Below, in pieces: positions 2,350-57,189 of a DNA stretch of 64,000 nucleotides. Positions within the stretch are counted from its first letter, which is position 1. Each line of letters opens with the position of its first letter. The position numbers and the translations under genes were made by a program. Where the stretch lies: positions 880-64,879 of the forward strand of contig CAYMBZ010000003.1 of NCBI GenBank assembly GCA_964388835.1, written 5' to 3'. The notes under the pieces were generated by a model, which saw nothing but the letters and a program-made list of their open reading frames with translations, had not been told where the DNA came from and searched no databases. Source of the stretch: an uncultured Lachnospiraceae bacterium (lineage in GTDB: Bacteria; Bacillota; Clostridia; UBA1381).

Positions 2350-2352
2350 TTT

Positions 2353-16079: not shown

Positions 16080-18128
16080 ATGAAAGTTAAAAAATTATTG
16101 GCTTCTGTTTTGGCAGTATCGATGTTGTCAAGTATTGCGGCAACGCTCAATATCTCTGCCGCAGATACGGCGAATAACTACAAAACCACACCGGTATTAA
16201 ACGAGACTTTTGACAGCGGTGCGTTAAAGACGGAACATTCCGGTTGGGGTAACCAATGGATTGAGGAAACCTTTGCGGATGAAACCGGACGCGGTAAGGT
16301 TTGGACAATTCCTTTCGGAACTGGAATGGCGAATGCCGCGGTAAACGGTGCTTTCTCAAGCATAGGTCAGTATATGACGGGAAGCCTGAATTATGTAAAA
16401 TTTGATTTTAAGGCAGAAAATGCGTACAACTTTTCATTCCAGCTTATGGGAACGGAAGCGGATACAAGAGCACCGATACAGCTGTCGACTTCAAGACACG
16501 GTTGGATGTACGCAAACAATTTTGACAGTATAAGTCAAGCAGGTTTGGACGGAAATGAAACGGTACTGGACTCTAACTCTAAAGAGATGATAAACGCGGC
16601 TGAGTGGAGAAACGGAAGTGAGGCTATTAACTTTACGGCAGGCAACTGGTACAGCGTTATGTTTGTTATTGACAAGGTAAATACAAAGATAAAGATTTAT
16701 GTGGACGATAAGTTTATGCTGGAAAGAACGGTGCCTGCCGATACGATAAATGCTTTGGATATGCTACATGTATGGAATCATTATTCGGAATCGGATACGA
16801 GTGTCAGCAGATTTATGACATTCGACAACTTCCAAGTTGGTACCTGCACGGAGCAGATTGCGGCAGAGAAGCTAACACTTTCGGAAGACGGAAAACTTAC
16901 CGTAACTTATTCCGGCAAAGTTGTGGGAGCAACGTTCACTGCAAGCAACGTGGTTATCAAAAAGGATGGAGAGGGCGTTTCCTACAACGGTTCATATGAC
17001 AGTGAGACATATACATACACGGCTACCATTGCGAATTTTGACCCATATGCTGACTACACAGTTTCAATTAAAGGTATAACGGGATTCGGCGGCAAGCCGG
17101 TTCAGGAAGTTGAAAAAACTTTCAAGGGCGTTAAATATCTTTTCAGCCCGGTTTTGACGGATACATATGACGACGGTACTGCGACCTTTGATTGGCAACC
17201 GGATTGGTCACCGAGTACAACCTATGTGGATGAGACAGGACGTGGCAAGGTAGCGGCTGTTACGTTTAAAGAAGAGAACAAGGATAGCACGACAGAAACA
17301 AATATAGTATTAACAGAATTGTCACAGTACATGACATCGGATGTAAACTATATAAGTTTTGATATTAAGCCGGCACAGCTTATGAATATGTCATTCTCTC
17401 CGACAGATGTAACGAATGTAGTGTATCCTCTCACTTTGTTCTCCTCAGAAAATGGATGGTTCTGGGGTAGCGGCTCAAGAATTCCGACGCAATACGGAGA
17501 CGATTTACCGACAATATACGGAAACACCCGCGCAACTTTAGTTGGCTGGGGATTTAGCGCAAGCAGCTTTGCCGATACAGAGGTCGGAAAATGGTATAAC
17601 GTTAAGTTTATCATGGATAAGAAAAATGGAAAAATTGCGGTATATGTTGATGATGTTAAGCTTGATGAAGTAAGTGCAAGTGCGACGGAATTAAGCAGTA
17701 TAGACAGACTTTTGGTAAGGGATTGCTCCGCGGGTAAGACAGGACCTAATATGTACATCGACAACTTCCAAATAGGTGCGGCATTTCCGGCACCGTCTAA
17801 GGATACAAGCATAACGCTGGTTGATGCAAGCGGAAATGCAATTACAAACGGAACAACTGCCGCTGAGGTTTATCCGAAGGCTGTAATTAACAATACAGGC
17901 AAGGAAGCAGGTTCGGTACAGCTTTCTGTTGCAAGCTATGATGCCGACGGTGTGCTTTTGGATGTAAAAGTTGAGACCGTTACGGTTGCTGCAGGTGAGA
18001 TTAAGACCGTTACTTCATCCTATGGCGTTAAAACACAAGGCACAAAAACCGTTAAAGCATTCCTTTGGAGCGGTTGGTCAAATATTACACCGCTTGTTGG
18101 AGCAGATGTTAAAACGGTAAACAACTGA
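16080..18128 (+). CDS. secreted non-catalytic protein with two ConA/LamG-like modules, an Ig-like spacer and a C-terminal KAFLW beta-sandwich module (682 aa)
   Basis: Signal peptide. Two modules each start with DETGRGKV and contain the core strands NWYSVMFVIDKVNTKIKIYVDD and KWYNVKFIMDKKNGKIAVYVDD, ending FDNFQVG and IDNFQIG. No hydrolase motifs were recognised. Confidence 0.6.
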   Translation: MKVKKLLASVLAVSMLSSIAATLNISAADTANNYKTTPVLNETFDSGALKTEHSGWGNQWIEETFADETGRGKVWTIPFGTGMANAAVNGAFSSIGQYMTGSLNYVKFDFKAENAYNFSFQLMGTEADTRAPIQLSTSRHGWMYANNFDSISQAGLDGNETVLDSNSKEMINAAEWRNGSEAINFTAGNWYSVMFVIDKVNTKIKIYVDDKFMLERTVPADTINALDMLHVWNHYSESDTSVSRFMTFDNFQVGTCTEQIAAEKLTLSEDGKLTVTYSGKVVGATFTASNVVIKKDGEGVSYNGSYDSETYTYTATIANFDPYADYTVSIKGITGFGGKPVQEVEKTFKGVKYLFSPVLTDTYDDGTATFDWQPDWSPSTTYVDETGRGKVAAVTFKEENKDSTTETNIVLTELSQYMTSDVNYISFDIKPAQLMNMSFSPTDVTNVVYPLTLFSSENGWFWGSGSRIPTQYGDDLPTIYGNTRATLVGWGFSASSFADTEVGKWYNVKFIMDKKNGKIAVYVDDVKLDEVSASATELSSIDRLLVRDCSAGKTGPNMYIDNFQIGAAFPAPSKDTSITLVDASGNAITNGTTAAEVYPKAVINNTGKEAGSVQLSVASYDADGVLLDVKVETVTVAAGEIKTVTSSYGVKTQGTKTVKAFLWSGWSNITPLVGADVKTVNN

Positions 18129-18180: not shown

Positions 18181-18226
18181 TTCTGAAATACTACAATGTG
18201 ACTCTTAAAATGAGGTGGACAAATTA

Positions 18227-20542
18227 ATGAAAAAATTCTTGTTTTTAATGCTTTCCCTCATATGCATAACGGCGGGTGCAGTTCATGCGGCAGATGAGGA
18301 AAGCAAAATTTTATACTACAATGACGGGTACAGTGATTTAAATTCTACGCAGACAACGCTTGACGGTGAATTGTGCCTAAAGCACAAAGTGGATTCAAGC
18401 AGTACAAATTATGTTGCAACTGCAGGTGTACTGAATCCCGAAGGCATAAAGGCTGATAAGACGATTTTCAGCTTTGATATAAACGCGGGTCAGACCAACC
18501 AGTATGTGTTTGCGGAACTTCATGGAAGTGACGGAACAAATTCCGCACAGATAGCAAGCTTTTTTGTTTCCATGGACGGAAAGATAGGATACAAAACGGT
18601 AAACGGATGGGAGGGAACAGCAGAATTCCCGAACGGAAATGATGCTTACTCTGGATATATTTTAAAAGATATTGAGCCGAATAAGTGGTATCATATAGAT
18701 ATGATTTTCAATCATGAGGACGGCTCTATCACCTATTATTTTGACGGCAGTGTTTGGGGAACAGGTCATACCTTTACCAAAAAGTATTATGTAAGCCTGT
18801 TAAATATGGCATCAAGGGGCGGAGAAGGTTATGTTACAAATCCGACCGGTAACGAGGTATTCTACCTTGATAACATAATGCTTGCCTCGGTTTACGGAGA
18901 TGAAATGATTGCAAATGTCGGAGCGGTTGACCTGAAAAAGAAAACCGTAAATATTACTTTCTCGGAAATTCCGAGCGAGACGGCATTATCGGATATTAAA
19001 ATTATCAATACCGTTACGGAAAACCAGGTTGCAATTACGGATATTAGCAGAAAGAACAACATTGTTACCTTAAGTTTTAGCGAAGATTTGGATACTTTGA
19101 CCGAGTATGCAATCGAAATTCCGGCGGGAATTACGGGAGTTCAGGGGAAAACAAAACACCAATTGTCGTATTTTGTAACCGAGAGCGGACAAGCTGACGA
19201 AAATATTGTATATACGACCGCACTTGAGGACGACTATGACGATGCAACGGCTATATATCAGTGGAATCCGTCTTACTCACCCGAGCCTGAGTTTGTTGAT
19301 GAAGCGGGACGCGGCAAAGTTTTGGGTATAAAATTTGCCGTAAAACAAGCAAATATCGAAACCAATATACTGCTGAGTGGGTTGGATAGCTATTTTCAAG
19401 ATAAAGATATAAGCACATTGAGCTTTGATTTAAAGGAAAGTCAGCTGAGAAATCATTCATTTTCACTGGTAACTTCCGGCTGGGCATATCCGATAACACT
19501 TTTCACTTCCGAGAAGGGGTGGTTCTGGGGTACGGACAGCGAGGCGCCGACACAAAACGGTGGAAATTTGCCGTTATTGTTCCCATCAACAAAGGCGGAG
19601 CTTGTAAATGATTGGGGATACCCGGCAAGCCAGTTTGCGGATATGCAGACGGATAAATGGTACAATGTTAAATTTGAGCTTGACCGCAAAAACGGAAAGG
19701 TAAGAGTTTACATTGATAACACAAAATTATATGAGGCAAACTGTTCCAAATCCACTCAAAACGCAATTAGTATGCTTTTGGTGAGAAACTGCTCGGCAGA
19801 AATATCAGCTGCTCAAAATGTTCTTTTTATAGACAACTTTACAATTAAAAACGGTGAGCCGGAACGCGAAAATAAGATTAAAAACACAAGATTTATCACA
19901 TCGGACGGACGTGTGACGGGCCCGTTCGGTAAAATCACAAGAGATTTGCAGAGAATTGACGTTGAATTTTACAATGCGCCGAAAGTTTCCTCAATAACAG
20001 CGGACAGTGTGAAACTGTTCTACGGAAGCGAGCAGGTTGCATATACTGTCGGCGGACTTTCGGGAAATGTGCTTTCCGTCATCCCGAGTAAACTGCCGAA
20101 TAGTGGCGACAAGGTTAAACTTGTTGTTTCGGGAGTACTTGCACAGGCGGGTGGAACGGTTTCCGACCACAGCGCGAGCGTAACCGCGGAGGGCGCAAAC
20201 GGCGGATTAAGCATTGCTCCGTTTATGACAGTTAAAACTGACGGAACTGAGGCTACCGCTGTTTCAGGCGATGTCTATGCAAAAACATCCGTATTTAATA
20301 CCGGAAGCAACACAGAAAATGTAATTGTTTCCATTATGGGCTATAACGGTGATAAAATGGTGGCGATAGACTTTGAAGAGATTGAGCTTAATAGCGGAGA
20401 CGTTGCCGTATTTGATGAAACGGGAAGCAACAATACTTTGAAAGTTTTAGATGACGGCACAATTACCGATGTTATGCTTGTTGTTTTAAAGGGCGGAGAT
20501 ACGAGATATTCGATACTTGCACCTGTTAGTATAGAAAGGTAG
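18227..20542 (+). CDS. secreted non-catalytic protein with two ConA/LamG-like modules, Ig-like domains and a C-terminal beta-sandwich module (about 771 aa)
   Basis: ATG at 18227 follows GAGGTGG, and the signal peptide is MKKFLFLMLSLICITAGAVHA. Core strands are KWYHIDMIFNHEDGSITYYFDG and KWYNVKFELDRKNGKVRVYIDN. Its second module is a close paralog of module 2 of the preceding gene. Confidence 0.6.
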   Translation: MKKFLFLMLSLICITAGAVHAADEESKILYYNDGYSDLNSTQTTLDGELCLKHKVDSSSTNYVATAGVLNPEGIKADKTIFSFDINAGQTNQYVFAELHGSDGTNSAQIASFFVSMDGKIGYKTVNGWEGTAEFPNGNDAYSGYILKDIEPNKWYHIDMIFNHEDGSITYYFDGSVWGTGHTFTKKYYVSLLNMASRGGEGYVTNPTGNEVFYLDNIMLASVYGDEMIANVGAVDLKKKTVNITFSEIPSETALSDIKIINTVTENQVAITDISRKNNIVTLSFSEDLDTLTEYAIEIPAGITGVQGKTKHQLSYFVTESGQADENIVYTTALEDDYDDATAIYQWNPSYSPEPEFVDEAGRGKVLGIKFAVKQANIETNILLSGLDSYFQDKDISTLSFDLKESQLRNHSFSLVTSGWAYPITLFTSEKGWFWGTDSEAPTQNGGNLPLLFPSTKAELVNDWGYPASQFADMQTDKWYNVKFELDRKNGKVRVYIDNTKLYEANCSKSTQNAISMLLVRNCSAEISAAQNVLFIDNFTIKNGEPERENKIKNTRFITSDGRVTGPFGKITRDLQRIDVEFYNAPKVSSITADSVKLFYGSEQVAYTVGGLSGNVLSVIPSKLPNSGDKVKLVVSGVLAQAGGTVSDHSASVTAEGANGGLSIAPFMTVKTDGTEATAVSGDVYAKTSVFNTGSNTENVIVSIMGYNGDKMVAIDFEEIELNSGDVAVFDETGSNNTLKVLDDGTITDVMLVVLKGGDTRYSILAPVSIER

Positions 20543-20547
20543 GAATT

Positions 20548-23477
20548 ATGATTAAAAAAATATGCTCGGTAGTTCTGTGTGGACTGTTTGCATTAAATGT
20601 TACCGTTTTTGCGACACCAACCGCCGTTGTAACAAAGGATGAGATTTACTTAACATCTCAATATTCCGGCGGAGAATCGGGAAAAATGTACAGTGTTGAC
20701 CTGTATGATTCCACATACAATGCTGAGAATCCGCTACCGTCATTGGTTTTCAGAAACCAGGAAATAAGCGGTCCCTCCGGGTGGTGGGGCATGACTATTC
20801 CAATGAAAAATAAAGAGGCGGGCGTTTACCGCTTGGCATCGGGAGAAGAGAGCGGTACGGTTTATACCGAAAACATTCTTTACGATAAATTTGACGGAAA
20901 GAAGACCTACAACGGTATAAGTGCAAATACCGACGGTTCTTTAAACTTTGACGCGGGTGCGTATTTGCAGGCGGATTTTGCGGACTTGGTTTCGGATAAT
21001 CTGGTGAAGGTAAGTTTTGATATTCAGCTGACAGAAAACAGTAACTTTTATATGAGACTTAACAATGTACAAGATGCTGTTTGGAACGACAAAACGCAAA
21101 TATTCGATACGCTTTACTTCAATTCAAACGGAAAGGCATACCTTTTTACAAATGAAAACAACTGGTCGGGGGCGGACGAGTACAAAAGCTGGTATGCGGG
21201 CAGAGAATACCATGTTGAGCTATGGGTTGATATGCTGAGAAAGAGCATAGCCGGATATGTGGATAATACCGCTATAGGTAAAATGCCGCTGGCGGACGGA
21301 CTTAACAAGTTGGGCGGACTAAAAATGACGTGCTCTTCGGGAAGCGCAAAAGTGAGCAATTTTGAAATGTGCGAATTTCCTGAGTACGGCACAGATGTCA
21401 GCCTCGGAAATCATGCTCCCGATTATGCCGAACAGCCGATTTATGCGGCGGTTAAGGTAGGAGATGATATCGGAAACATAATCTTCGGTGCGGAGAATGT
21501 GGATTTGGATATTTCTTTGCTTAATCGTGAGAACAAGGCGAGAAATTATACCGTTAAATATAATTTCTATGATGCCGACAGCGGTGTGCTTATCGGAAGT
21601 GACAGCGAAGATGTAAGTTTTTTGGGAAACGAAAAGCTGGTATTGAATAAAAAATTCGATTTTACAGATTTTAAGAAACAGTACGGATTTTTCAAACTGG
21701 TAATGAGCTTTTCGGAAAATTCCTATGAGATTTCGGATTTTAATTCCTCGGAATTCAGATTTTCCGTTGCAAGAAAATCCTCCGAGCTTAATAAGAAAAT
21801 GGGAATTCATACTCAGTTTGGACACGGATATTCCGGACAATACGAGAATATTACCCTTGCGAAAAACGCGGGATTTTATTCAATAAGAGACTATGTTGCG
21901 GATAGCCAGTACAGCGCGGCTAACGGATGGGTACTTCCCGAACGCTATACGATTTGGCACAATTATGCAAAAGCCGCAGACATGAATGAGATTCTGCATG
22001 TGTATTATTCCGCAAACGGATTGGTTCCGACATCGGATGCGGAAATCCAAAAATTTGCGGAGTATGCTGGCAAGCTTGCCGCAAATACCGATGCGGAATA
22101 CATTGAGTTGTTTAACGAGCTTAATCTTGCGGGTGATAGCATGACAACCGCAGATTACGCAAAGGTTCTTATGGCAACCGCCGAGAAAATTCATCCGGTA
22201 AAAAAGACAATGGCGATGGTAACCGCAAGAGCGGGAGCTCAGGCACAGGAATGGATTAAAGGTGTGCTTGATGCGATTGTTGAGGCGGGAGGACAGCCTG
22301 TTGATTATATCGATTCAGTATCGGTTCATCCGTATAAGCTCTATAACCTGTCACCGGAGACCGGCAAGATACCGGATAAGGGAGAAAACGACGGTACATT
22401 GCATGAGCAGGTTGCGGATGTACGTGCGCTTATGAATCGATACGGTCTGGAAGAGTGTCCGATTTTCGCTTCGGAAATAGGCTGGACATCAACGCCTGTT
22501 TGGTCAGGCTGGGCACAGGTGGACGACAGAGTTACCGAATACGAGCAGGCGGAGTATACTATTCGAGCCTCGGTTCTTCTGCATGAGGATTTGGAATGTA
22601 TGTATTGGCATACGATGAATGATAAGCTGGGTGCGGATGTTTATGAAGAGCATTTCGGAATCGTGGATAAAAGAGCGGCAGTGGAAATTCCTTTTGAAGC
22701 AAAACCGGCATTTATCGCATTGGCGCAGTTCAATTCCCTTTTGGCAAATGCAAAGAGAACTTCCGAAACGGAAAACAACGGCTGTTATGATGCGGTGTTT
22801 AATAAGAACGGAAAAACCGTTCATGTGCTTTGGACAGACAGTGGAAATAAACCATATGAGTTTAATGCCGTATCAAAGGTTTTGAAACTTTATGACATGT
22901 ACGGAAACGAAAGCATTGTAACCTCGGAGGACGGAAAATATAACATGCAGCTTTCAACATCGCCGATATATGCGGAGATACTTGACGGTTATGTTGAGTT
23001 TACCGTTGAAAATGCAAACATGTGCTTTGGACAGACAGTGGAAATAAACCATATGAGTTTAATGCCGTATCAAAGGTTTTGAAACTTTATGACATGTACG
23101 GAAACGAAAGCATTGTAACCTCGGAGGACGGAAAATATAACATGCAGCTTTCAACATCGCCGATATATGCGGAGATACTTGACGGTTATGTTGAGTTTAC
23201 CGTTGAAAATGCAAACGGAGATGCGGAGGTTAAGGTCGGTACGGACAGCGTTCGTGCAAGGCTTATTTCCAACAAAACATTTGATACCAAGCGCTACATA
23301 ATTGTGGCGGCATACAAGGATAAGCAATTGCTCGGTGTTGATATTAAACCGGTTGACGGAACGGCTTTGACAAATATGACAGAGCTGATATCGACACAGG
23401 GTGCGGATACGGTAAAGGCATTCTTGATGACGGAAAGCTTTGAGCCGGAACTTACAAGCACCGCGAACAGCAAATAG
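20548..23477 (+). pseudogene. secreted LamG plus clan GH-A-like hydrolase gene interrupted by a 197-bp tandem duplication (ORFs 20548-23082 and 23022-23477); 910 aa if one copy is removed
   Basis: Signal peptide MIKKICSVVLCGLFALNVTVFA. GH-A motifs are YIELFNELN, VSVHPY and PIFASEIGWT. Both ORFs encode LWTDSGNKPYEFNAVSKVLKLYDMYGNESIVTSEDGKYNMQLSTSPIYAEILDGYVEFTVENAN. Deleting one 197-bp copy restores a single 2733-nt frame. Confidence 0.85.
22822..23215 (+). repeat. perfect tandem direct duplication, 2 x 197 bp
   Basis: 22822-23018 and 23019-23215 are identical base for base on direct comparison. 197 is not a multiple of 3. There is 1 nt of junction microhomology (C). Confidence 0.97.
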
Positions 23478-23483
23478 AATGGA

Positions 23484-25127
23484 GTGACAATATTGAGAAA
23501 AATAATTTCTTTGGCAATCGCCGCAAGTACATTTTTAACTACTGCGGCAATGGCGGATGTTACGGATTTGGGAGGTCTTAAGGGAAATATAAATGAAGAG
23601 ACTACCTTTCCGAATACCGCAATGAATGTTGAGGTATATGCGCCGGGTAAGGGATACGCCGATTTAAAAACGGCATCTGCGGCGGAGTATAAGGATATTC
23701 TGATTTTCCGAAAGGTTGTAAATACCGATGCGGACGGAGTATTGGACGTTAATTTTGAGGTAGGCTCAAGCAATCCTGCGTCCGGAATATATTCGGTGTA
23801 CATTGCCGGCGCCGACTATAAAAAGGAGGACCGCGTTCTTCTTACAGATGAAACCACGGCGGCTCCTATTATAGCTCAGATAAACAGCGCTATGGCGGGA
23901 GAAGCTCAAAACGCAATAAATACAATCGCTGGTCTGATAGAGACCGCGCCTTTTGATTTGTACATCAGCGCGGATTCATATTTGACGCAGGACGTATATC
24001 CGATTGCGGCGGGGCTTGCGTATAACTACATGAAAACAAACAACATTACACTTACAAGTGCAAACTGCGGAACGATTATGAACAAGGCGGTATGCGTTGC
24101 GGCGCTGCAGAAAAATCTTGTAAGCAATGTGATTGCAGATGAAAAGGGCTTTAACCTTTCACAAAGCGAAATTGCGCCATACTACAAAAAGTATTACGTA
24201 ACTGAGGAGACCGGCAAAAAAATGGCGGCAAGACTCGGCGGTAAGGCTTATGCGACACTCGGCGATTTTGATAATGCATTGACCGAGGCATTTGTATTGT
24301 CCGTTTTGGAAAACCCGGACGGTTCGGATAACACAAAGGAACTGCTCAATGCGTTCTATGCGAAGATAGGAATTACTCAAAACGGAACAGCGGCGCAGTA
24401 TGCAGGAGTATCAAACAAGAGCTATACGGATTTTGCGGCGTTAAAAGCGGCTTATGTTGCACTTGCGGGACAAACACAGTACACACCGCAAGGCGGCGGT
24501 GGCGGCGGTGGAGTAGGCGGCTCCGGTTCTTCGCTTAATGCGGGATTTACTGTTCCGTCTCAGCCGACACAATATCCTATCACAATTTTTGATGATTTGG
24601 ATTCTGTTTCATGGGCAGAGGAGGCAATCGTTTACTTGGCGGAAAATCTTATCGTAAGCGGTAAGGGTGATATGAAGTTCTGCCCGAACGACGAGATTAC
24701 ACGTGAGGAATTTGTTAAGATTTTGGTAGGTGCGCTTAAAGTTGCACCGGAAGAAGAAAAGGAAATCACTTTCTCCGATGTAAGTGCAGATGCATGGTAT
24801 TACGATGCTGTTAAAAAGGCATATTCTGCCGGAATTGTAAGCGGAAAGAGCATTGAACTTTTCGGAACCGGCGAACGCATAACACGCCAGGAGATGGCGG
24901 CTATGGTAATGAACGGAGCGAAATATTCGGGACGAAGCTTAGAGGACGCAGTAAGCGATTTCAAATTTGATGATGACGGCGAGATGGCGGATTGGGCAAA
25001 GGAAAGTGTCTACATCTTAAGAGAAGCCGGAATAATCAGCGGAGTGGACGAATATCATTTTGCGCCGATTCAAACAGCAACAAGAGCTCAGGCGGCTAAA
25101 ATGATTTACGGCTTGCTTGAAGGTTAA
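23484..25127 (+). CDS. cell-wall-anchored protein: N-terminal beta-sandwich, alpha-helical region, poly-Gly linker, C-terminal triple SLH (547 aa)
   Basis: Signal peptide. The linker is GGGGGGGVGGSGSS. SLH repeats begin near 24585 (FDDLDSVSWAEEAIVYLAENLIVSGKGDMKFCPNDEITREEFVKIL; FSDVSADAWYYDAVKKAYSAGIVSG; a third follows). The start may instead be the TTG at 23493. Confidence 0.8.
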   Translation: MTILRKIISLAIAASTFLTTAAMADVTDLGGLKGNINEETTFPNTAMNVEVYAPGKGYADLKTASAAEYKDILIFRKVVNTDADGVLDVNFEVGSSNPASGIYSVYIAGADYKKEDRVLLTDETTAAPIIAQINSAMAGEAQNAINTIAGLIETAPFDLYISADSYLTQDVYPIAAGLAYNYMKTNNITLTSANCGTIMNKAVCVAALQKNLVSNVIADEKGFNLSQSEIAPYYKKYYVTEETGKKMAARLGGKAYATLGDFDNALTEAFVLSVLENPDGSDNTKELLNAFYAKIGITQNGTAAQYAGVSNKSYTDFAALKAAYVALAGQTQYTPQGGGGGGGVGGSGSSLNAGFTVPSQPTQYPITIFDDLDSVSWAEEAIVYLAENLIVSGKGDMKFCPNDEITREEFVKILVGALKVAPEEEKEITFSDVSADAWYYDAVKKAYSAGIVSGKSIELFGTGERITRQEMAAMVMNGAKYSGRSLEDAVSDFKFDDDGEMADWAKESVYILREAGIISGVDEYHFAPIQTATRAQAAKMIYGLLEG

Positions 25128-25139
25128 GAGAGGGATAAT

Positions 25140-27710
25140 ATGGTGAAACGTTCATTTTTATTCATGTTGCTTATTGCAATGTGTATGTTTTCAGTATCGG
25201 CGGGGGCTAAGGAAAACGTTTCTGCCGAAAGTGAAATTGAATTGCTTCAGGTATTGGATATTGTCGGCAGTGATTTTGCCGACAATGCCGATGAGCCTAT
25301 TACAAGAGAAGAATTTGCCGTATATGCGGCAAAGCTTAACCGGTACACGCCTGAGGCAAATGCTGTAAGATATTTTAATGATGTTTCCGCAAGCAGTGAG
25401 CTTGCGGGGTATGCGGGACAGCTCTTGGAGGGCGGAATAATTACTCAGCCCGCAGACGGTATGTTCCGCGCGGCAAGCGTTATTAAATATAACGAGGCAT
25501 GCTGTATGCTGGTTTCAAGCATGGGTTATGCAAAACATGCCGCTCTTATAGGAGGATATCCGTCAGGCTATGCAAATATCGCACATGACCTTGATATTAG
25601 AATGGGTGGCGGAAATGCGGAAATGACAAGAGCAGACGCGGCACGCATGATATACGATGCGCTTAAGGCGTATGTTTACAATGCGGCTTACGGCGGCAAG
25701 GAGGGCACAATGTCATTCAAACAGGGAAATAAAACCCTGATTGAAAAGAATTTCGGTATTGCATATGCCGAGGGAAAACTGATGGGAACACCCTACGGTA
25801 ACAGCGAAAGTTCCGAATTTGTGGGAAATGACCGCGTGGTTATATCGGGAAAGAACTATGTTATAAAAGGTGATGTCAGCGGATTGGATTTGTTGGGACA
25901 TAACGTTACATATTTCTATGATACCGACAGTGAGGAAATTCTTCATATAGCAATTGAAAAGCAAAAGAAGGATGACCTTGTTATCAATATAGCCGATATC
26001 CAAAGAATAAGCGGTACATCGGTGAGCTATAACAAAAACGGCAGTTTGAAAAATGTGAATCTGAAAACAGAGAATGTTATTTATAACGGTTTTCTGCAAG
26101 GAACACGAGTTGCCGAAAAACTTGCGGATTTAAACAAGGGTATTGTTATTTTGAGGGACACTGACAGGGATTCTCAATATGACATGATGATGGTTTACGA
26201 TTACACAAATCTGACGGTCGGAGGAACAAAACAGGATAAAACTCTTGTTTACAACAAAATTCAAGGCGGTGCAAACCTTGACCTTACCGATGTTGAGGTA
26301 ATTGAGGTAACGAAGTACGGCGAGAAAATCGATTTTGCGGAAATAAACGATGGAGATTCTCTTTCGGTAATGACTGCGGACAACGGGAAAGTTATAAAAA
26401 TTATCGTAAATACCGACGAGGTTATAGGCGCATTAAATAGCTTTGACGGAGAATATGCCGTAATTGACGGTGGTGAGTACCTTGTCGAAAAAAGCTATCG
26501 AAGCAGTTTCCTCAAAAAGGTAAAAACGGGAAGCAATGCCGCATTCGTACTTGACCCATTCGGAAATGTTGTGTATGTAAATGTAGATTCCGAAGAATGG
26601 CAGTTCGGATATATCTTAAAAAGATATTTTGAGGATGATGACAACTTGGGTTTAAAAATTTTGACCGAAGACGGGGAAAGAAAGATAATCAACCTTGCAG
26701 AAAGAGTCAGAATTGACGAGACAACTTACAAGTACACAGCTGATTTTGAAGAACAGCTGACCGGACTTAGCGAGAATATCATCAGATTTCAAAAAAACCG
26801 TGACGGCAGAATAAACAAAATCGACACATTAAAAATCGGAAGAAATGAGGATAAGGAAAAGTCAATTGTTTCGGTTTATGAAGATACAAAAGCATGGTCC
26901 GGAATGGGTAATATAGGTAAGTATGGCTCTAAGGCGGTGTTTACCGGCAGAACAATAGGCTTCATAGTTCCTAACAGCTACAACGAGGGGGACTATGCGA
27001 TAACCCTGGGTGCTCCCGATGATTTGTCAAATGACGGATTGGTGATAAAGTGCTATTATGCGGATACCGCGGATTCGGACGGATATGTGGATGCATACGT
27101 TAAAAAGTATGACAGGGAAACCGAGAAAAAGACAATCACTATGATGTACAGTGGCAAGAGCATGGGGCTTGACGATGACGGCGATCCGGTGTATATTGTA
27201 AAGGGTTACTCTGCGGGAAAGGAAGTTGAACAGGAGATTTCCACAGAGATTGGTGCCGAAAGTTTATCTGCACTTTCAAGTCTTAAAAAGGGAGATATGG
27301 TTGTACTTACCGTATATGCGCAGAGTCTTAAATTCTGCACTGTTGAGAAGATTTTTGATGCTGAAACCGGTACGCCATGCAATTTTAAGGCGATTACCGC
27401 AGAACATATTTGGTACAGCGGAACAACCGAGGAGGCATACTATGCATCAACAAACCAAATTGTGTACGGAGAGATATTCGACAGACACGGAAATGTATTT
27501 TCTATAAGAAATGACGAAAATTCCGAAGTCAATGAAAGATTTACAATTCCGTCATCCTTGACATGCGTATTCTATGACAAGGCGACAGATGAAATATACA
27601 CCGGCAGTTGTGATAATATTCAGGATTATGAAACAGCAAGAAGCAATTGTATGAAAGTGATAAAAACTTCATATTGGGGCAGTGTATCCGGTGTATATCT
27701 GTATAAATAA
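25140..27710 (+). CDS. N-terminally SLH-anchored large surface protein, about 650-aa C-terminal region of unknown function (856 aa)
   Basis: Signal peptide. SLH-like repeats occupy the first 190 aa or so (ITREEFAVYAAKL, FNDVSASSELAGYAGQLLEGGIITQPADGMFRAASVIKYNEACCMLV). Paralog of 27740-30307 and 42816-45515. Confidence 0.65.
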   Translation: MVKRSFLFMLLIAMCMFSVSAGAKENVSAESEIELLQVLDIVGSDFADNADEPITREEFAVYAAKLNRYTPEANAVRYFNDVSASSELAGYAGQLLEGGIITQPADGMFRAASVIKYNEACCMLVSSMGYAKHAALIGGYPSGYANIAHDLDIRMGGGNAEMTRADAARMIYDALKAYVYNAAYGGKEGTMSFKQGNKTLIEKNFGIAYAEGKLMGTPYGNSESSEFVGNDRVVISGKNYVIKGDVSGLDLLGHNVTYFYDTDSEEILHIAIEKQKKDDLVINIADIQRISGTSVSYNKNGSLKNVNLKTENVIYNGFLQGTRVAEKLADLNKGIVILRDTDRDSQYDMMMVYDYTNLTVGGTKQDKTLVYNKIQGGANLDLTDVEVIEVTKYGEKIDFAEINDGDSLSVMTADNGKVIKIIVNTDEVIGALNSFDGEYAVIDGGEYLVEKSYRSSFLKKVKTGSNAAFVLDPFGNVVYVNVDSEEWQFGYILKRYFEDDDNLGLKILTEDGERKIINLAERVRIDETTYKYTADFEEQLTGLSENIIRFQKNRDGRINKIDTLKIGRNEDKEKSIVSVYEDTKAWSGMGNIGKYGSKAVFTGRTIGFIVPNSYNEGDYAITLGAPDDLSNDGLVIKCYYADTADSDGYVDAYVKKYDRETEKKTITMMYSGKSMGLDDDGDPVYIVKGYSAGKEVEQEISTEIGAESLSALSSLKKGDMVVLTVYAQSLKFCTVEKIFDAETGTPCNFKAITAEHIWYSGTTEEAYYASTNQIVYGEIFDRHGNVFSIRNDENSEVNERFTIPSSLTCVFYDKATDEIYTGSCDNIQDYETARSNCMKVIKTSYWGSVSGVYLYK

Positions 27711-27739
27711 TCGAATACTGCAAAAAGGGGGTAGAGACA

Positions 27740-30307
27740 TTGATAAAAAGAATATTGACGGTAGCGTTAATACTGTTTTCCTGTGCAGGAAGAGCATTTG
27801 CCGCAGATTATTCCGAAGAAAAAACAGCTGTCGAATTCCTAAGAGTTTTGGGAATATTCGACGAGATTGAAGAGGAAGAGTATAATAATCAAATTACGCG
27901 CGAGGATTTTGCGTACTATCTTGCAAAGGCAAACCGCATGGACGGAAGCAGTGAGTACAGATATTACAAGGATATCCAATCGGACAGCTACGCATTTGGC
28001 TATATCAGCGATTTGGCGGAAAACGGGATAATATCTGTTCCCGAGAATGAAACGTTCAGACCGCTGGAATACATAACGGTGAATGAAGCGGCAAAAATGC
28101 TGATTTCCACGTTGGGGTATGACCAATTTGCAATGGCAAACGGCGGATGGCCAAACGGATATTGCACAACAGCCGAGGACTTGGATATTGACCTCGGAAA
28201 GGGAACTGATGTAACCTACGGCGAGGCGGCAAAAATGATATATGATTGCTTGCAGTGTCCGGTTGCGAAAATCAACGGAGGAAAGCACAACCTGCTTACT
28301 TATGTAAGGGGAGATGAAACTTTTCTTGAACGTATGTACGATATCAAAGTGGGCGAGGGGGTTGTAACCGATACCTCATACGGAAGTATCATAAATGATG
28401 TACCTTGTGAAAAAGGCAGAATTATTATCTCGGGTGCTGTGTATTCGTTGGACGAAAATGTGGATGTAAAGCAGTTTTTGGGAGTTAATTCAAAATATTT
28501 TTACAACGCGGACGGTGAGGACGAAAGCATAATTTTCATATGTAACAAAAAACAAAAGGTTACGGATAAGGTTATAAATATTCGCGATTTTGTGAAATAC
28601 GCAAATAATATGATTACTTATGAAGAAAACGGCAGAGTAAGAAGCGTAAAGCTTTCGGAACACAAGATAATTTATAATGGTGTCCCGTTGACGGCACGGG
28701 TAAATGAGACTATGAGCAAGCTTAACAAGGGTGAAATTGTTTTGCGCAGCACAAGTGCAAACTCGGATTACGACCTTGTTATGGTGACCGACTATATGAA
28801 CTTGTATGTAGGCTCAATTGACCCGGACAGCCTTTCACTTTACAGCGGACTTAATGACGGAAAGAGTGTCAATTTAAAAAATTGCGACAATCTGACTGTA
28901 ATAAGAAACAACGTTGAAGCGGAATTTAAAAATATCACTTACGGAATGTCGCTTTCGGTTGCAATATCGCAGAATAATAAGGTATGCGAAATTAATATAA
29001 ACACATCGAGCGCGACGGGTATTTTGTCAAAAACAGATGACGAAGGCGTTACCGTAGACGGAAAATACTACAGAGCAGACAAGAGTTATCTCAGTGAAAT
29101 TCGAAGAATGAACTGCTTGGGTCTTAAGGTTGAGTGCATTTTGGATAAATTCGGAAATGTTTGCTACATAACCGACAATTCCGAAAAATGGACACTTGCT
29201 TATTTGATTAAAACAGTGAATGATGAGGATGAAGATACCGTTAAAATTAAGGTAATCACAGAGGATAATCTGCTTACGGTTCTCGGTTTTGCAAAGAATG
29301 TCAAGATAGACGGGGCGAGAATTAAAAAGGATAATCCGGACAAAATCAATGCGGCACTTGAGCTTATGCCGCAGAAAAAGCTTTTGCAGTACAAGCTCAA
29401 CAATAACGGCGAAATTGCCGAGATGGATACACTTTATGTGGGCGAGAATGAGGATGAAGAACATTCTCTGGTGCCGGGATTCAGTGAGGTCAAATCGAGA
29501 TTTTACATGGCGGACGGTGTCGAAAGATATGGTCATACCGCATACTTTACATCAAACACAGTAACATTTTACATTCCGACTGACGGGGATGCAAATAAAT
29601 ATGTGGCAAAAAGGGGAGCACTGTCTCTCGGCGGAAACGTTATGGCAACAATCGAGTGTTACTATTCCGGAAAGGATAGGTCACATATTAATGCGGCGGT
29701 AAGAACCAGAGAGGCGGCGGCTTCGGATTCATATTCAGTAATGATGGTAAACAGCGTAACCCAAGGGCTTGACGAGGATGATGAATGTGTTTATAAGCTT
29801 GAGGGATATTCCGGAGCAACAAAAGTTACCTATGATGTAGACACATCATTTACTCAGCTTAACGGTTTAAATCGCGGTGATATGGTTGTTATCAAGAAGG
29901 ATAATGTCGGAGTGGATATCTTTGATGTTATAAAGCTGTACGATGCAAAAACAGATACGGCAACAAATTTTGAGGTAACAGACCCTATCTATATTTATGA
30001 ATCAACCGGAAGTGCTAATATCGAAGTGGGAAATTATTGCAGAGGCTATAATATCCTGTTCGGATATGCGCTGAGAAAATTTGATACCGGCTTGATTGCT
30101 GTGGGAAAGGATTCGGTATCGAGCGAAGCGGACAGATTAATAATGGATAAAAGGCAGTGCGTGATTTATGATTTCGATAATGATGAAATTACAATCGGTG
30201 ATTATAATGAAATTCAGGATGCAAGGACAGTGGGCGGAGATTGCTCACGAGTAATGTATTACCTGCATTGGGATGACGTACAGACGTGCTATGTATTTAA
30301 CCGATGA
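27740..30307 (+). CDS. N-terminally SLH-anchored large surface protein, tandem paralog (855 aa)
   Basis: TTG start and signal peptide MIKRILTVALILFSCAGRAFA. SLH-like repeats are present (ITREDFAYYLAKA, YKDIQSDSYAFGYISDLAENGIISVPENETFRP). It is collinear with the preceding gene (GGWPNGYCTTAEDLDI versus GGYPSGYANIAHDLDI). Confidence 0.65.
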   Translation: MIKRILTVALILFSCAGRAFAADYSEEKTAVEFLRVLGIFDEIEEEEYNNQITREDFAYYLAKANRMDGSSEYRYYKDIQSDSYAFGYISDLAENGIISVPENETFRPLEYITVNEAAKMLISTLGYDQFAMANGGWPNGYCTTAEDLDIDLGKGTDVTYGEAAKMIYDCLQCPVAKINGGKHNLLTYVRGDETFLERMYDIKVGEGVVTDTSYGSIINDVPCEKGRIIISGAVYSLDENVDVKQFLGVNSKYFYNADGEDESIIFICNKKQKVTDKVINIRDFVKYANNMITYEENGRVRSVKLSEHKIIYNGVPLTARVNETMSKLNKGEIVLRSTSANSDYDLVMVTDYMNLYVGSIDPDSLSLYSGLNDGKSVNLKNCDNLTVIRNNVEAEFKNITYGMSLSVAISQNNKVCEININTSSATGILSKTDDEGVTVDGKYYRADKSYLSEIRRMNCLGLKVECILDKFGNVCYITDNSEKWTLAYLIKTVNDEDEDTVKIKVITEDNLLTVLGFAKNVKIDGARIKKDNPDKINAALELMPQKKLLQYKLNNNGEIAEMDTLYVGENEDEEHSLVPGFSEVKSRFYMADGVERYGHTAYFTSNTVTFYIPTDGDANKYVAKRGALSLGGNVMATIECYYSGKDRSHINAAVRTREAAASDSYSVMMVNSVTQGLDEDDECVYKLEGYSGATKVTYDVDTSFTQLNGLNRGDMVVIKKDNVGVDIFDVIKLYDAKTDTATNFEVTDPIYIYESTGSANIEVGNYCRGYNILFGYALRKFDTGLIAVGKDSVSSEADRLIMDKRQCVIYDFDNDEITIGDYNEIQDARTVGGDCSRVMYYLHWDDVQTCYVFNR

Positions 30308-39329: not shown

Positions 39330-39358
39330 TTAAAATTCATCGAAAGTAAGGAAATAAA

Positions 39359-40279: not shown

Positions 40280-40294
40280 GGAGGTACGCGAAAA

Positions 40295-41170: not shown

Positions 41171-41174
41171 GATT

Positions 41175-42800: not shown

Positions 42801-42815
42801 AAAGGATAACAGAGT

Positions 42816-45515: not shown

Positions 45516-45526
45516 GGAGACTAATA

Positions 45527-47767
45527 ATGACAAAAATCAAAAAAAGCATATGTATGCTGATAAGTGCCGTAATGCTGTTTGCCGGTGTTGTACCGATTAT
45601 GGCGGCGGAGAACGGCGTTGGTATCACAATCGGGTCGGAGAAGGTGGGCAACATCTTCTTCGGCGATGAAGAAGCAAAGTTTGATGTGGTATTTAAAAAC
45701 ACCTCCGGTACCGATAAGGATATTACGGCGACATATTCGGTTTACAAATATGACAATACGATGAAAGCCGTTTTAAGTAGTACCAATAACAGAAAAATTC
45801 ATATAAATGCCGGCGAGAAATTTACCGATACAATAGCGCCGGAGGCAAAGGAATACGCATTGTATAAGCTTGAGGTTAAGGTAGGCACCGAGATAACGTG
45901 TGCGGACTTCTCAAGAGCCGTAAGAAGCAACAACACAAACCCCACACTGGGTGTTTCGGCGCATTTAACCACTGTCGGAGATATTCATAACAGCCTTATG
46001 CTGGTAAATGCCGCAGGTATATCGAATTTGCGTGACGATTTCAGATGGAACGAAATTGAAAAAACAAAGGGCGATGTAAAGCTTACAAGCAGAATGAAAA
46101 CACTGATTTTGAATGCCGAAAGCTACGGAATAGACATTCTCCCTGTGATTTACGGTTGGAACTCACTTTATCAAAATGATACTAATAGTTTTGTAACCGA
46201 TGCAGATGCGATAAAGAGCTACGGAGTTTATCTGAAAAAGCTGATGCAGACGGATGAGTTTAAAAACTATATTAATAATGTAGAAATTCTGAACGAACCC
46301 GATTGTGCGAAGATTCCGGGATATGAAGCAACCGACGGAACAGCCGCATCAAACAAAGCGCGCGGTGCAGCATACGCCACGATTCTTAAGGAAGCTTACA
46401 CGGCAATCAAGGACGTAAAGCCGTCGGTTACGGTAGGTGCATTTTCAACCTGTTCGGTAAATACCGAGGGCACAAAGCAGTTTGTGCAGGCGGTGTTGGA
46501 CAATTTGGATGCGAAGTATTTTGATGCGGTAACAGAGCACCCATATTTCGGAAGCGGTTATACCGACGAGCAGCATAAAACATACCGTTACGGTACTTTG
46601 ATTAAAAGTCTGGGAGATTATCACGGACTTTTTACCGGTAAATTTGCGAACAGTACGAGATGGCATACCGAATACGGCTCAACGACAGCCGATGACGGAG
46701 GAAAAGGCTTCTCGGTTGCAAATCAGTACGAGCAGGCGGTGAAAGCAATCAGAGCATACAACACAATTAAGCGGTACAGCTTCTCAGATAAACTTTATCT
46801 GTACTGCCTTGCAAACAACGGCTCAAACGAAACAGCTACGGCAGATAACTACGGAATGTTGAGAGCGCACAATTACGAAACACCGTATGCGGCAAAAGCG
46901 ACATATCTTGCTGTAGCCAATATGAACAACATTTTGGGAAATGCAACGGAATGTATCACCGTTTCCGACGGAACGGACAGCTCTTTCATAACAAAGTACA
47001 CTGCCGACGACCGCGAAGTGTACATGATGTACTGCGAAAAGGGCAAAACCATGAAAAAAGCATACACACTGCCCTCCGGAGTAACTTTCTATGACCTTTA
47101 CGGAAACAAGCTGGACAATGTTTATACAGGCGGCAAATGCTCTTTGACAGAAGCGCCGATTTATGCGGTGATTGGTGAGGCACTGACTTCCGCAAAGGAG
47201 ATTGAGAACTTCAAAATTACAGGAAGTGTGCCGTCAGGCGCAGAGGGCAAAATGGTAACTCTTTCAGTTACCGAGGGAGATATTGAATTTGATGAAGTGA
47301 GCGCTGAAAATATGATTTACATTGATCAGCAGTTCACCGAGCAATACGGCAGATTTGAATTCGACATAGTGCTTGATACAAGCAAGAATTATACAGCTTA
47401 TGTTGTATCTTCGGACGATACCACACCGGTTTGCTTGAAACTTTCGGCTGAATCCGCGAAGAATATCGAGCTTGAGCTGTATACGGGAATTTCAAAAATC
47501 AAAAACGTGTCGGTAAGTACCGATGAGCTATCAAAAGCGTATGCAAAGGTTACCTACAACGATACCGGAGTAAAAGGCGGTAAGCTTTATCTTGCAATCT
47601 ACAACGGCAAAAAGCTTGTAGGCACAAAAATTGCCGATTCCGCGGCGGGTGAAGAAAAAGTTGACCTATCGGGAATAGCAGTAACAAGCTATGATAATAT
47701 CAAGCTTATGCTTTGGGATAAAACAAATGGTATGATACCGCTGTGCGACGTTTTGGACATAAAATAA
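45527..47767 (+). CDS. secreted clan GH-A-like hydrolase with Ig-like domains and a C-terminal beta-sandwich module (746 aa)
   Basis: Signal peptide. Motifs are NVEILNEPDC, VTEHPY and RWHTEYGST. The C-terminus reads ...KLYLAIYNGKKLVG...IKLMLWDKTNGMIPL. Confidence 0.65.
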   Translation: MTKIKKSICMLISAVMLFAGVVPIMAAENGVGITIGSEKVGNIFFGDEEAKFDVVFKNTSGTDKDITATYSVYKYDNTMKAVLSSTNNRKIHINAGEKFTDTIAPEAKEYALYKLEVKVGTEITCADFSRAVRSNNTNPTLGVSAHLTTVGDIHNSLMLVNAAGISNLRDDFRWNEIEKTKGDVKLTSRMKTLILNAESYGIDILPVIYGWNSLYQNDTNSFVTDADAIKSYGVYLKKLMQTDEFKNYINNVEILNEPDCAKIPGYEATDGTAASNKARGAAYATILKEAYTAIKDVKPSVTVGAFSTCSVNTEGTKQFVQAVLDNLDAKYFDAVTEHPYFGSGYTDEQHKTYRYGTLIKSLGDYHGLFTGKFANSTRWHTEYGSTTADDGGKGFSVANQYEQAVKAIRAYNTIKRYSFSDKLYLYCLANNGSNETATADNYGMLRAHNYETPYAAKATYLAVANMNNILGNATECITVSDGTDSSFITKYTADDREVYMMYCEKGKTMKKAYTLPSGVTFYDLYGNKLDNVYTGGKCSLTEAPIYAVIGEALTSAKEIENFKITGSVPSGAEGKMVTLSVTEGDIEFDEVSAENMIYIDQQFTEQYGRFEFDIVLDTSKNYTAYVVSSDDTTPVCLKLSAESAKNIELELYTGISKIKNVSVSTDELSKAYAKVTYNDTGVKGGKLYLAIYNGKKLVGTKIADSAAGEEKVDLSGIAVTSYDNIKLMLWDKTNGMIPLCDVLDIK

Positions 47768-47779
47768 GGAGGCAGTGTT

Positions 47780-51172: not shown

Positions 51173-51174
51173 GA

Positions 51175-53580: not shown

Positions 53581-53835
53581 TTCGGTAATTTAAGCGCTTC
53601 TGCGCCGAGGAATACGGCATGCTCTTACAGCCGCCCTCCCAACGGAAATTGTTGACGGGATTTTCGGTAAGAGAGGCGGCGCGCAAAGCCTTTGCTCGGT
53701 GCGTGTGCGTGACAGTAGCATATGCACCGCAAAAAGAGAGTTGCGCCTGACTTTGGCGGCGTAAGGATTTGCCTATATACAAGTCACAGAAACGTTAAAT
53801 TAAATATAAATGTAAAAAATAAAGGAGCGAGAAAA

Positions 53836-56800: not shown

Positions 56801-57189
56801 GCAGTTCGGGTCTTGTGATAAATTCAATCGACCTTTATGAAAATGTTGCGCCTACAGCACTGGATATGACAAAGGGAATTACCGCTAATGCGGATGTTCT
56901 TGTAAAGAATATTGCAAGGATTACGGGAAAACCGGTATTCATCATCAAGGGTTACAACACAGGTGAGGCAACAACAGCATTGGTAGCCGATGCAAATTAC
57001 AACGTTGTAAACAGCGGCAGTGAAGTTAAGGCTATAAAAAAAGAGGACAAGACGGTAGCCGCAGGCTCTGCATTTGAATGGAGACTGGATGCATCAGACG
57101 TTATTAACGCCGACGGAAACCAGATTAAGGCTTTCGTTTGGGATGCGGCTCAAAAAGCTTTGATTGAAAATTACATGAGCACTAAATAA
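53836..57189 (+). CDS. secreted non-catalytic protein with three ConA/LamG-like modules, Ig-like domains and a C-terminal KAFVW module (about 1117 aa)
   Basis: TTG at 53836 follows AAAGGAGCGAG and gives the signal peptide (M)KKQNFKKLLCALLSASLMASGMTAFA. The track's 53722 start adds 38 aa without an RBS. Core strands are AWHRYDLIIDMEHGTYTPYIDG, TWAHFKLNINPQAGKVDVYKDG and VWYHYKYIINP. Confidence 0.6.
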   Translation: MKKQNFKKLLCALLSASLMASGMTAFASNGSSRYTLSAFQTFGDYVKEDDSAVYPDGWAKWVQGSGAVNLRGKTEITTGSNAMYVLTNAIPRFNFDTLVQEGIAHIGFDMKLEEGAGVRIMGSTDFTGSKNPNSVYHDSHELVVQNYYLDLNYAIGGKVTLFTGDAGIQVWSTETVDESDTAWHRYDLIIDMEHGTYTPYIDGAKIVKSQTVAGEDDEGNSIYEYTYYENLKSNYNLKNIYFQTTGGNIWLDNFTAENYATPAEGVLAAPQVKADFNNGKVDIAYSEAVNLSSVAASSVSATNVETGNTVSATAFTKTATGAVIDFGDLPNGTYYVNLPRVSGKISGKTAVGNPAFSVVKTINANEKELVLIDEDFADYTGEGAPTGWATLTTGTYDKATLTQGTKGNGEKTFVMSGNGAGSYYYNFDGGYALHGENFTVEFDVNSANAGWGIGIMRDSDMNTYKYSTMDRYNGTFGNTDYSVIAGRYQKVNNMFAGVYEYLNSEDTSEENSVKGTFVTQNNVYNLWTLAKTSNSANKATEYDYGTWAHFKLNINPQAGKVDVYKDGEFVVQNTYPVNMFAGVKQTDDENKNPTYSDGIAGIRLHKEAGCSSVAFANIKVSKDNSYLTYQDFEGRVTANENSVGWIAGAYIGWYQDGVKKGGVYEGQDQTKTQFKTTAGKNSNTALEIYSMKGAERWEAVKTILNKPVTKGKGFVIEFDAKKSTGNGWFMGAATTAGATVGTVTGTLLQIKNDGKVQFGTGYDSNYTQPGYGDDYGTEKNPVTIGDGVWYHYKYIINPNTADDGNKTTRYLQITDESGNTQELYANVRNDNVANRLRNENTVAIEFMANWTPAGVPFAIDNLKVWEIEPDDATGKEPTNKSVYMQYAKAVSYDGSEEFFETDLDKLKDTKELVFKFSDKLTEDAKSKISVKVNEAEIGTKTIDGDKLIVSLAGVVIPENKSVKIKVESGIACEGGVTEDSHSYDISSHSSSGLVINSIDLYENVAPTALDMTKGITANADVLVKNIARITGKPVFIIKGYNTGEATTALVADANYNVVNSGSEVKAIKKEDKTVAAGSAFEWRLDASDVINADGNQIKAFVWDAAQKALIENYMSTK

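Follow-up and report, generated by a model that had tools for sequence, protein, structure and literature searches.

The stretch analysed here, 64,000 nucleotides of contig CAYMBZ010000003.1 from an uncultured Lachnospiraceae bacterium (GenBank assembly GCA_964388835.1, positions 880 to 64,879; below, the window), carries two paralogous sugar-utilisation loci at ~ 9259-30307 and ~ 37941-57189. The same kinds of gene occur in both, in differing order, and counterparts are 23-33% identical (p1149/p1130, p547/p541, p856/p899, p844f/p746). Each locus has an AraC-type regulator transcribed divergently, a lipoprotein solute-binding protein, two ABC permeases, one glycoside hydrolase (GH) of GH39-like type with a carbohydrate-binding module (CBM) of family CBM9 at its end (p1149 or p1130), one SLH protein of the p547/p541 type and one or two of the p856/p855/p899 type. 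Three secreted proteins in each locus terminate in a further module, the subject of this work, which we describe as a family of immunoglobulin (Ig)-like domains and for which we consider a possible role in holding exoproteins at the cell envelope. The six hosts and their module copies are:

p682, 16080-18128, plus strand: two lectin-like regions and Big_5, then the C-terminal module (copy 1, 17796..18128, plus strand), the best family member in the window.
p775, 18215-20542, plus strand: lectin-like region and Big_5, then the C-terminal module (copy 2, 20201..20542, plus strand), whose last strand has diverged and is followed by an 11-residue tail.
p151, 23022-23477, plus strand: 3′ piece of a split GH-like gene, ending in the module (copy 3, 23184..23477, plus strand), a profile match.
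p746, 45527-47767, plus strand: CARDB-like domain, GH-like catalytic core, then the C-terminal module (copy 4, 47459..47767, plus strand), a profile match.
p801, 51175-53580, plus strand: lectin-like region and Big_5, then the C-terminal module (copy 5, 53254..53580, plus strand), marginal, with an insertion after the A-x-Y strand.
p1155, 53722-57189, plus strand: module at the C-terminus (copy 6, 56836..57189, plus strand), probable, with the strand IKAFVWD kept.

A first-pass annotation, made from the DNA letters, had drawn attention to these six tails and to the lack of a recognizable anchor on the proteins that bear them. Its module coordinates stand, and all six tails are the extreme C-termini of their open reading frames (ORFs). 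For p775 it had taken DVMLVVLKGG as the terminal strand; the equivalent of VKAFLW is instead TLKVLDD, with 11 residues following the module. The absence of anchors is borne out. Neither SLH (PF00395) nor dockerin (PF00404) is matched by the six proteins in Pfam at E ≤ 1, no LPxTG sorting signal is present and no lipobox was seen by eye. A regular expression for sortase substrates finds only an internal LPNSG (p775 residue 627, ~ 150 residues from the C-terminus), and the 0-11 residues that follow the module match in the six proteins leave no room for a sorting signal. The module itself has no matches to cohesin, WxL, lipoprotein or PPC families. The N-termini of all six host ORFs look signal-peptide-like. 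In p1155 the longest ORF begins ~ 40 residues before this segment (KKLLCALLSASLMASGMTAFA; window 53722-53850), and translation probably starts at an internal codon instead. The body of p746 gives a sub-threshold Pfam match to Glyco_hydro_cc (20.2 bits versus a cut-off of 21).

Pairwise similarity among the module tails is weak, with BLAST E-values of 0.01-0.1 (17-protein database) and 12-27% identity to the first sequence in a MAFFT alignment of the six. The family claim therefore rests on profiles. Two reverse tests were run against the window. The first used a hidden Markov model (HMM) of 56 external modules, from which close homologues of p682 and p801 had been excluded, against 480 six-frame window ORFs; the second used, against the window ORFs, a converged HMM whose 169 domains come almost wholly from other organisms. 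The E-values obtained were:

p682: 6e-23 with the 56-module HMM, 7e-19 with the converged HMM.
p746: 5e-16 and 4.5e-12.
p151: 1e-14 and 8e-9.
p775: 3.5e-8 and 1e-6.
p1155: 1.7e-4 and 1.2e-3.
p801: 6e-3 (domain E-value) and 0.047.

The 56-module HMM ranks the six tails at the top, save that p844, by virtue of an internal CARDB-like domain, has a whole-ORF E-value of 0.045 and stands above p801 (0.11). With the converged HMM, p801 does not rise above two internal CARDB-like domains, one in p844 (residues 320-380, E = 0.005) and one in p746 (residues 53-106, E = 0.017). We therefore count four secure copies, one probable and one marginal. Thus the proposal that six tails share one module holds on profile E-values for p682, p746, p151 and p775, which are clear members, and for p1155, which is a probable one; p801 qualifies only marginally. 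The homologue of p801, P0045, has the same tail. In p775 the module aligns to the leading two thirds of the profile and no further. Pairwise BLAST showed no locus-specific similarity among the window modules.

An exhaustive search of 1.84 billion representative proteins with the six-module profile returned 59 proteins at E ≤ 1e-3, and nearly all of these external matches end 0-13 residues before the stop. Their consensus (lIvAaY.g.kL..vk...v.l.aGe...ga..vKaFvWDsl.nM.PLc) is sharper than that among the window copies; the family consensus reads ..v.v.N.t....a.lIvAaY..dG.L..v....v.l.aGe........ga..vKaFvWDsl.nM.PL. No curated name fits these sequences. Pfam gives nothing at E ≤ 1 on the module in the six window proteins and no recurring match across 60 members. 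In NCBIfam a single member of the 60, the p682 copy, passes the FxLYD_dom cut-off (NF038353; 25.8 bits versus 23, over 45 of 71 profile positions), and the other 59 all fail to reach E = 0.05. CARDB (PF07705) has a threshold of 22.7 bits, and the best score, from one member of the 60, is 15 bits (E = 0.03). Sequence profiles searched against the PDB gave nothing at E ≤ 5 for the 60 members and chance-level matches only (E ≥ 0.056) for the six modules. Word-indexed homologue searches found nothing with the p682 module, only p151 itself with the six-module profile and only P0056 with the 60-member profile. A literature search brought up no paper describing the module and none mentioning FxLYD. 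The first-pass annotation had named a match to a known CBM or to a generic Ig-like spacer family as the result that would speak against docking. The profile searches brought up no known CBM and no named spacer family; the fold itself, described next, is nevertheless that of a generic Ig-like sandwich.

Given the p682 module and the alignment of all six, AlphaFold2 confidently predicts an all-beta domain of seven strands (pLDDT 86.8, pTM 0.78). Foldseek against the PDB matches generic sandwiches only (best E = 1.6e-3, TM 0.5-0.6), among them GH2 Ig-like and GH3 fibronectin type III (Fn3)-like domains, transglutaminase barrels, RhoGDI and the Wzt carbohydrate-binding domain. We are thus highly confident that the module is a real, uncurated Ig-like domain family of ~ 90 residues with a seven-stranded beta-sandwich fold. 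It lies within the broad CARDB/FxLYD-like Ig fold and is related to CARDB and FxLYD only distantly. Like these and DUF7490-type E-set sandwiches, all of them Ig-like beta domains of ~ 70-100 residues in proteins that are secreted or surface-exposed, it has an N-x-T loop, an h-h-h-A-x-Y-D turn and an A-G-E turn in the same order, and its matches to CARDB and DUF7490 are weak and in register. Unlike CARDB and FxLYD, it bears the signature VKAFVWD-x6-PL and strongly favours the C-terminus, and only one member of 60 reaches any curated threshold. An hhalign comparison with the CARDB-like domains of p746, p844, p1149 and p1130 is in register and not significant (P 0.004, probability 8.6%). The domains in question are CARDB/DUF7490-like sandwiches that lie ahead of the catalytic core in each of the window's four GH-like enzymes (at 45650-45850 and 21460-21690, and within the N-terminal thirds of 12554-16003 and 47780-51172); their likeness to the C-terminal module is weak and in register (HMM E-values of 0.005-0.017).

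The spread of the family was surveyed with a hand-made degenerate DNA pattern for [VI]K[AV]F[VIL]WDx6P[LI], scanned over one genome per GTDB species, which yielded at least 120 stretches. Among the matches listed, the HMM confirmed a true module in 108 of 120 (at least 108 loci), and every confirmed locus with a named lineage belongs to Clostridia or Paenibacillus. Carriers include metagenome-assembled genomes of gut and rumen Clostridia (Monoglobus, Ornithomonoglobus, Ructibacterium, Hominilimicola, Roslinia, Lachnospiraceae, Oscillospiraceae, Eubacteriaceae and Epulonipiscium) as well as Sedimentibacter, Syntrophomonadaceae, Clostridium tetanomorphum, C. rectalis and at least seven Paenibacillus genomes. 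Several genomes gave more than one module locus. The 12 unconfirmed stretches among the 120 listed come mostly from Arcobacter, Saprospiraceae, Hyphomicrobiales, Verrucomicrobiales and similar lineages; 11 of them are from other phyla or genera, or are Bacillota records in which no module was found. We take the unconfirmed stretches as chance matches, of which a hand estimate for the pattern gives about two dozen. The module is therefore described here as a widespread, unannotated Ig-like accessory domain family, whose importance would rise were surface docking demonstrated.

The proteins that carry the module are diverse. They include BspA-type leucine-rich repeat (LRR) proteins (LRR_5), Peptidase_S8 subtilases, CHAP with FG-GAP, RCC1 with Big_2, DUF4886 and GDSL esterases, GH53, PL8, heparinase-like and DUF4855 proteins, Metallophos, prenyltransferase-like, Laminin_G/lectin-like and CBM_4_9 proteins. 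One candidate role is that of a new CBM, which would target enzymes and lectin-like proteins to their polysaccharide substrate. In its favour, the module is a beta-sandwich of ~ 100 residues on glycoside hydrolases, lyases and esterases in sugar-utilisation loci, conserved aromatic residues (Y, F and W) plus a K lie on two strands, and the sister enzymes p1149 and p1130 terminate in CBM9 instead. The Wzt carbohydrate-binding domain is the nearest fold among solved CBMs (TM 0.58-0.59, E ~ 6e-3 to 9e-3); such Foldseek matches are, however, weak and generic, and the PDB profile search found no sequence match to a solved CBM. The cargo spectrum argues further against a substrate-specific CBM, since subtilases, LRR adhesins, a CHAP peptidoglycan hydrolase, RCC1, prenyltransferase-like and phosphoesterase proteins do not fit a single glycan specificity. 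We consider this role improbable. As a separate observation, two proteins with a Pfam cohesin domain (P0028 and P0030) terminate in the module rather than in SLH or a sortase signal, and a protein of locus L023, cohesin-like at its N-terminus by eye, also has the module at its end.

Position was counted in the 113 module ORFs whose stop lies inside the fetched DNA. In 88 of these (78%) no more than 12 residues separate the module from the protein end. The module is usually present once, often preceded by Big_5; a few proteins have two copies (P0005, P0006 and P0044) or three (L202). Extreme C-terminal placement on many unrelated secreted enzymes, two subtilases among them, could point to a cleavable pro-domain or secretion aid in the manner of PPC or the C-terminal domain (CTD) of the type IX secretion system (T9SS). 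Those domains are likewise beta-sandwiches of ~ 70-90 residues at the extreme C-terminus of diverse secreted proteins (BspA-type LRR proteins, proteases). They are, however, strictly terminal and removed after export, and T9SS is limited to Bacteroidota; the module is non-terminal in 19% of proteins, in some of them in tandem, and its hosts are Bacillota. An obligatory C-terminal signal for sorting or cleavage is hard to reconcile with these internal and N-terminal copies. Ahead of the module there is no conserved cleavage motif, the loci are without dedicated sorting machinery, and neither PPC nor Por_Secre_tail is matched significantly. T9SS CTD profiles (TIGR04183/PF18962) reach sub-threshold scores only, 13.9 bits on P0006 and 15.6 bits at an internal site of p1155, and none of these falls on a window module. 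A pro-domain or secretion aid is accordingly very improbable.

The SLH proteins of the two loci bear on the remaining possibilities and are:

p547, 23484..25127, plus strand: signal peptide, N-terminal beta domain, helical region, Gly-rich linker and three C-terminal SLH repeats.
p541, 41175-42800: paralogue of p547, 31% identical to it.
p856 and p855, 25140..30307, plus strand: N-terminal SLH triple, then a beta-rich body of ~ 650 residues and unknown fold.
p899, 42816-45515: paralogue of p856 and p855.

The first-pass annotation had described SLH-anchored neighbours, and these are genuine. Pfam SLH matches the p547-type pair at 4e-32 and 5e-36 and is found in p547, p541, p855 and p899; a p856-type family profile, with p856 included, aligns over residues 31-167 with the entire SLH triple of both SpaA and Sap. 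The p856-type body has no Pfam family, and an AlphaFold model of p856 with its two paralogues is unusable (pLDDT 44.8).

Module and SLH largely avoid each other within a polypeptide. Comparing ORFs of at least 300 residues, SLH occurs in one of 100 module ORFs versus 25 of 267 other ORFs in the genome loci (odds ratio 0.10, p 0.003), and in two of 16 module ORFs versus 163 of 376 others in p856-centred metagenome loci (odds ratio 0.19, p 0.018). An SLH ORF lies within 8 kb in 25 of the 108 module-centred loci, and a p856- or p547-type gene in only three (~ 3%). Locus L041 and locus L094 hold the trio of module protein, p547-type and p856-type gene, and in L034 three module genes are followed by a p547-type gene. 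With so few module loci near such genes, these SLH proteins cannot be the general partner of the module.

The converse was examined with a metagenome scan for the p856-family motif GY-x7-GG[YW]PxGY-x3-A, which gave 120 stretches (loci L122-L241). True p856-type genes, with an SLH triple ending in GGYPxGY, account for 117 of them, and the p856-type SLH family is thus itself widespread. A module ORF was present in 14 of the 117, and in 23 of the 120 stretches after HMM iteration. Among p856-type loci of at least 8 kb, 13 of 52 hold a module protein, its gene mostly directly adjacent on the same strand and in many cases touching or overlapping that of the SLH protein. Among neighbours that reach 300 residues and have a signal-peptide-like N-terminus, 19 of 78 (24%) carry the module and eight of 78 carry SLH, the former being a raw figure given without a background rate among secreted Clostridial proteins. 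The association between module and p856-type genes is real but asymmetric: it involves a substantial minority of p856-type operons, and by far the most module genes lie distant from p856- or p547-type genes.

These data bear on the proposal of the first-pass annotation that the tails dock, as dockerins do, onto SLH proteins of the same operon (p547/p541 or p856/p855/p899) and so build a wall-bound glycan-degrading complex without cohesin or dockerin. In the window each locus encodes two or three SLH proteins alongside its three module proteins, and the recurrence of the trio, the adjacency to p856-type genes, the frequency of the module among their secreted neighbours and its depletion from SLH polypeptides are all consistent with docking. 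So is a fusion in locus L068 (minus strand, 333 residues, cut by the contig end), in which signal peptide and module are joined to a p856-type SLH N-terminus (NGGWPVGY); this is a Rosetta-stone-like link of the module to the p856 family. On the other hand, three quarters of long p856-type loci (75%) have no module gene, the cargo includes proteases, LRR adhesins and phosphoesterases foreign to these loci, and in L202 three copies occur in cis with SLH. The missing locus-specific similarity among the window modules, the N-terminal or internal copies and the generic Ig-like fold likewise speak against it. We regard docking onto these SLH proteins as a reasonable hypothesis to which we give a low probability; as a general mechanism it is unlikely, and the window SLH proteins are possible local partners.

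The resemblance to dockerins of cellulosome types I-III is nevertheless worth setting out. Like the module, dockerins are small, acidic, non-catalytic, usually single and C-terminal; they are carried by diverse secreted enzymes in many copies per genome and are absent from anchor-bearing proteins. Dockerins are helical, with a duplicated Ca-binding F-hand and a defined cohesin partner, whereas the module is predicted to be all-beta with seven strands; some cohesin-bearing proteins themselves end in the module. By analogy, the module might be a putative all-beta counterpart of dockerins, attaching SLH-less exoproteins such as enzymes, lectins, adhesins and cohesin scaffolds to SLH-anchored proteins of the p856 and p547 families or to the surface (S-) layer, but we rate this as doubtful at best. 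If it were true, it would constitute a second, cohesin-independent system for building surface enzyme complexes in gut Clostridia and Paenibacillus.

Our preferred reading is broader. The module would be a mobile, non-catalytic accessory part of secreted multidomain proteins, usually placed at the very C-terminus, which would hold at the cell envelope those exoproteins that have neither SLH nor a signal for sortase. Attachment might proceed via a wall component, via a surface protein or through membership of a surface complex. We are led to targeting or retention by the terminal bias, the single-copy use on unrelated surface-type cargo, the multiple loci in several genomes and the depletion from SLH proteins. 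In other organisms, surface proteins of this type (cohesin carriers, BspA-like adhesins) end in SLH, sortase or T9SS signals. From these sequence patterns we put the probability of a putative binding or retention module at the cell envelope at roughly 40%.

Several observations weigh against envelope retention. The fold found by Foldseek is a generic Ig-like sandwich, and the conserved A-x-Y, D/N-G turn, AG, VKAFVWD and PL elements lie in or beside predicted strands; these residues may do no more than define the fold. The conservation of VKAFVWD..PL is inflated because the genome sample was picked by that very motif pattern, and one Eubacteriales locus (L040) matched the DNA pattern and was not confirmed by the HMM. 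The modules are acidic (median pI 4.5, 85% below pI 6), unlike wall-polymer binders, which are usually basic. The first-pass annotation had the module always at the very C-terminus, which holds for the six window copies and for the 78% of family ORFs given above; in 22 of the 113 ORFs (19%), however, it lies more than 40 residues from the end, N-terminally or internally. Three proteins combine module and SLH, with the module never C-terminal: the L068 fusion; a protein of L123 (4911-10487, minus strand) arranged as Big_5, module, further sequence and SLH, after which comes a PL8 lyase that carries the module N-terminally; and a 2309-residue protein of L202 (1721-8647, minus strand) that contains three units of lectin-like region, Big_5 and module, then three SLH repeats, and that adjoins a p856-type gene. 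Hence the module does not merely stand in for SLH, and the depletion could stem partly from competition for the C-terminal position. The share of module carriers beside p856-type genes is, moreover, a raw proportion and not a measured enrichment. The L202 and L123 proteins look, in their own right, like SLH-anchored versions of the p682/p775/p801 architecture.

Many of these points would suit a purely structural domain, that is a C-terminal cap, spacer or stabilizer without a ligand, of the kind seen as accessory sandwiches in GH2 and GH3 enzymes. The top Foldseek hits are indeed non-binding accessory domains (GH2/GH3, transglutaminase barrels), the conserved positions look fold-defining, internal and tandem copies exist, the module often follows Big_5, and there is the weak in-register likeness to internal CARDB-like domains of the same enzymes. 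The GH2 and GH3 domains are, like the module, beta-sandwiches on glycoside hydrolases; unlike it, they are fixed in one enzyme family, whereas the module is shuffled, and the structural matches remain at TM 0.5-0.6, E ≥ 1.6e-3 and 7-22% identity. Spacer Ig domains are typically internal and repeated, which contrasts with the 78% of copies that are single and at the extreme C-terminus. SLH proteins are usually rich in Ig-like domains, and the strong depletion of the module from them is unexpected for a neutral spacer. Moreover, the length of the W-D-x6-P-L loop and its hydrophobic positions are fixed across distant taxa. We consider a structural role possible, if on the unlikely side.

Returning to envelope retention, the nearest precedents are SLH, CWB2 and WxL, which are also terminal modules and keep a range of exoproteins on the Gram-positive cell envelope. 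In WxL/Csc clusters (as in Lactobacillus Csc), sugar-related loci bring together proteins that have no anchor and partners that have one. WxL proteins have been found to bind plant fibre (PMC9026416). The module differs from all three in having no sequence match to them and in being a single acidic Ig-like domain rather than a repeat array, and its wall binding is putative. By analogy, the closest functional counterparts would be dockerins, non-covalent wall-binding modules and T9SS CTDs, and the closest structural ones CARDB/FxLYD-type domains and the Ig-like accessory domains of glycoside hydrolases.

Among gut Clostridia, Monoglobus-like fibre degraders included, many secreted enzymes and adhesins show no recognizable wall anchor. 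For their retention at the surface the module is a concrete, uncatalogued candidate, placed where SLH or sortase signals sit elsewhere. Even if it is merely structural, a family definition would better annotate thousands of ‘hypothetical’ C-termini and help to delimit catalytic domains in the discovery of carbohydrate-active enzymes.

Non-terminal copies fall into recognizable types. In three-gene arrays of L024, L037 and L105 a signal peptide and a beta domain precede the module, which is followed by an SGNH esterase; in Paenibacillus locus L013 and in L110 the module comes directly after the signal peptide. Counting L029 as well, L024, L105 and L037 have two or three tandem genes of the type signal peptide, beta domain, module and DUF4886/GDSL esterase, and by eye the N-terminal beta domain of these arrays resembles that of the p547 type.

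Module copy 3 belongs to a disrupted gene. The first-pass annotation had treated p151 as a protein of its own; it is the 3′ piece of a 910-residue GH-like gene that is split by a duplication:

22811..23204, plus strand: 197-nt tandem duplication interrupting the gene that encodes module copy 3.

The two head-to-tail copies (22811-23007 and 23008-23204) are 97% identical. The duplication frameshifts the gene (20548-23477) into an ORF of 844 residues and one of 151, and deletion of either repeat copy restores a single ORF. The duplication could be a real pseudogenizing event or an assembly artefact. The 151-residue piece exists as a separate protein in an NCBI-derived collection.

Upstream of the two loci lie their regulators:

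6706-8934 and 35375-37633, opposite strand: transmembrane AraC-type regulators, each upstream of its own locus.

Two neighbouring pyruvate formate-lyase-type glycyl-radical enzymes of 755 and 708 residues, unrelated to the module, are encoded at window positions 82-4479 (minus strand), and a gene for a small AraC regulator (4626-5417) adjoins them.

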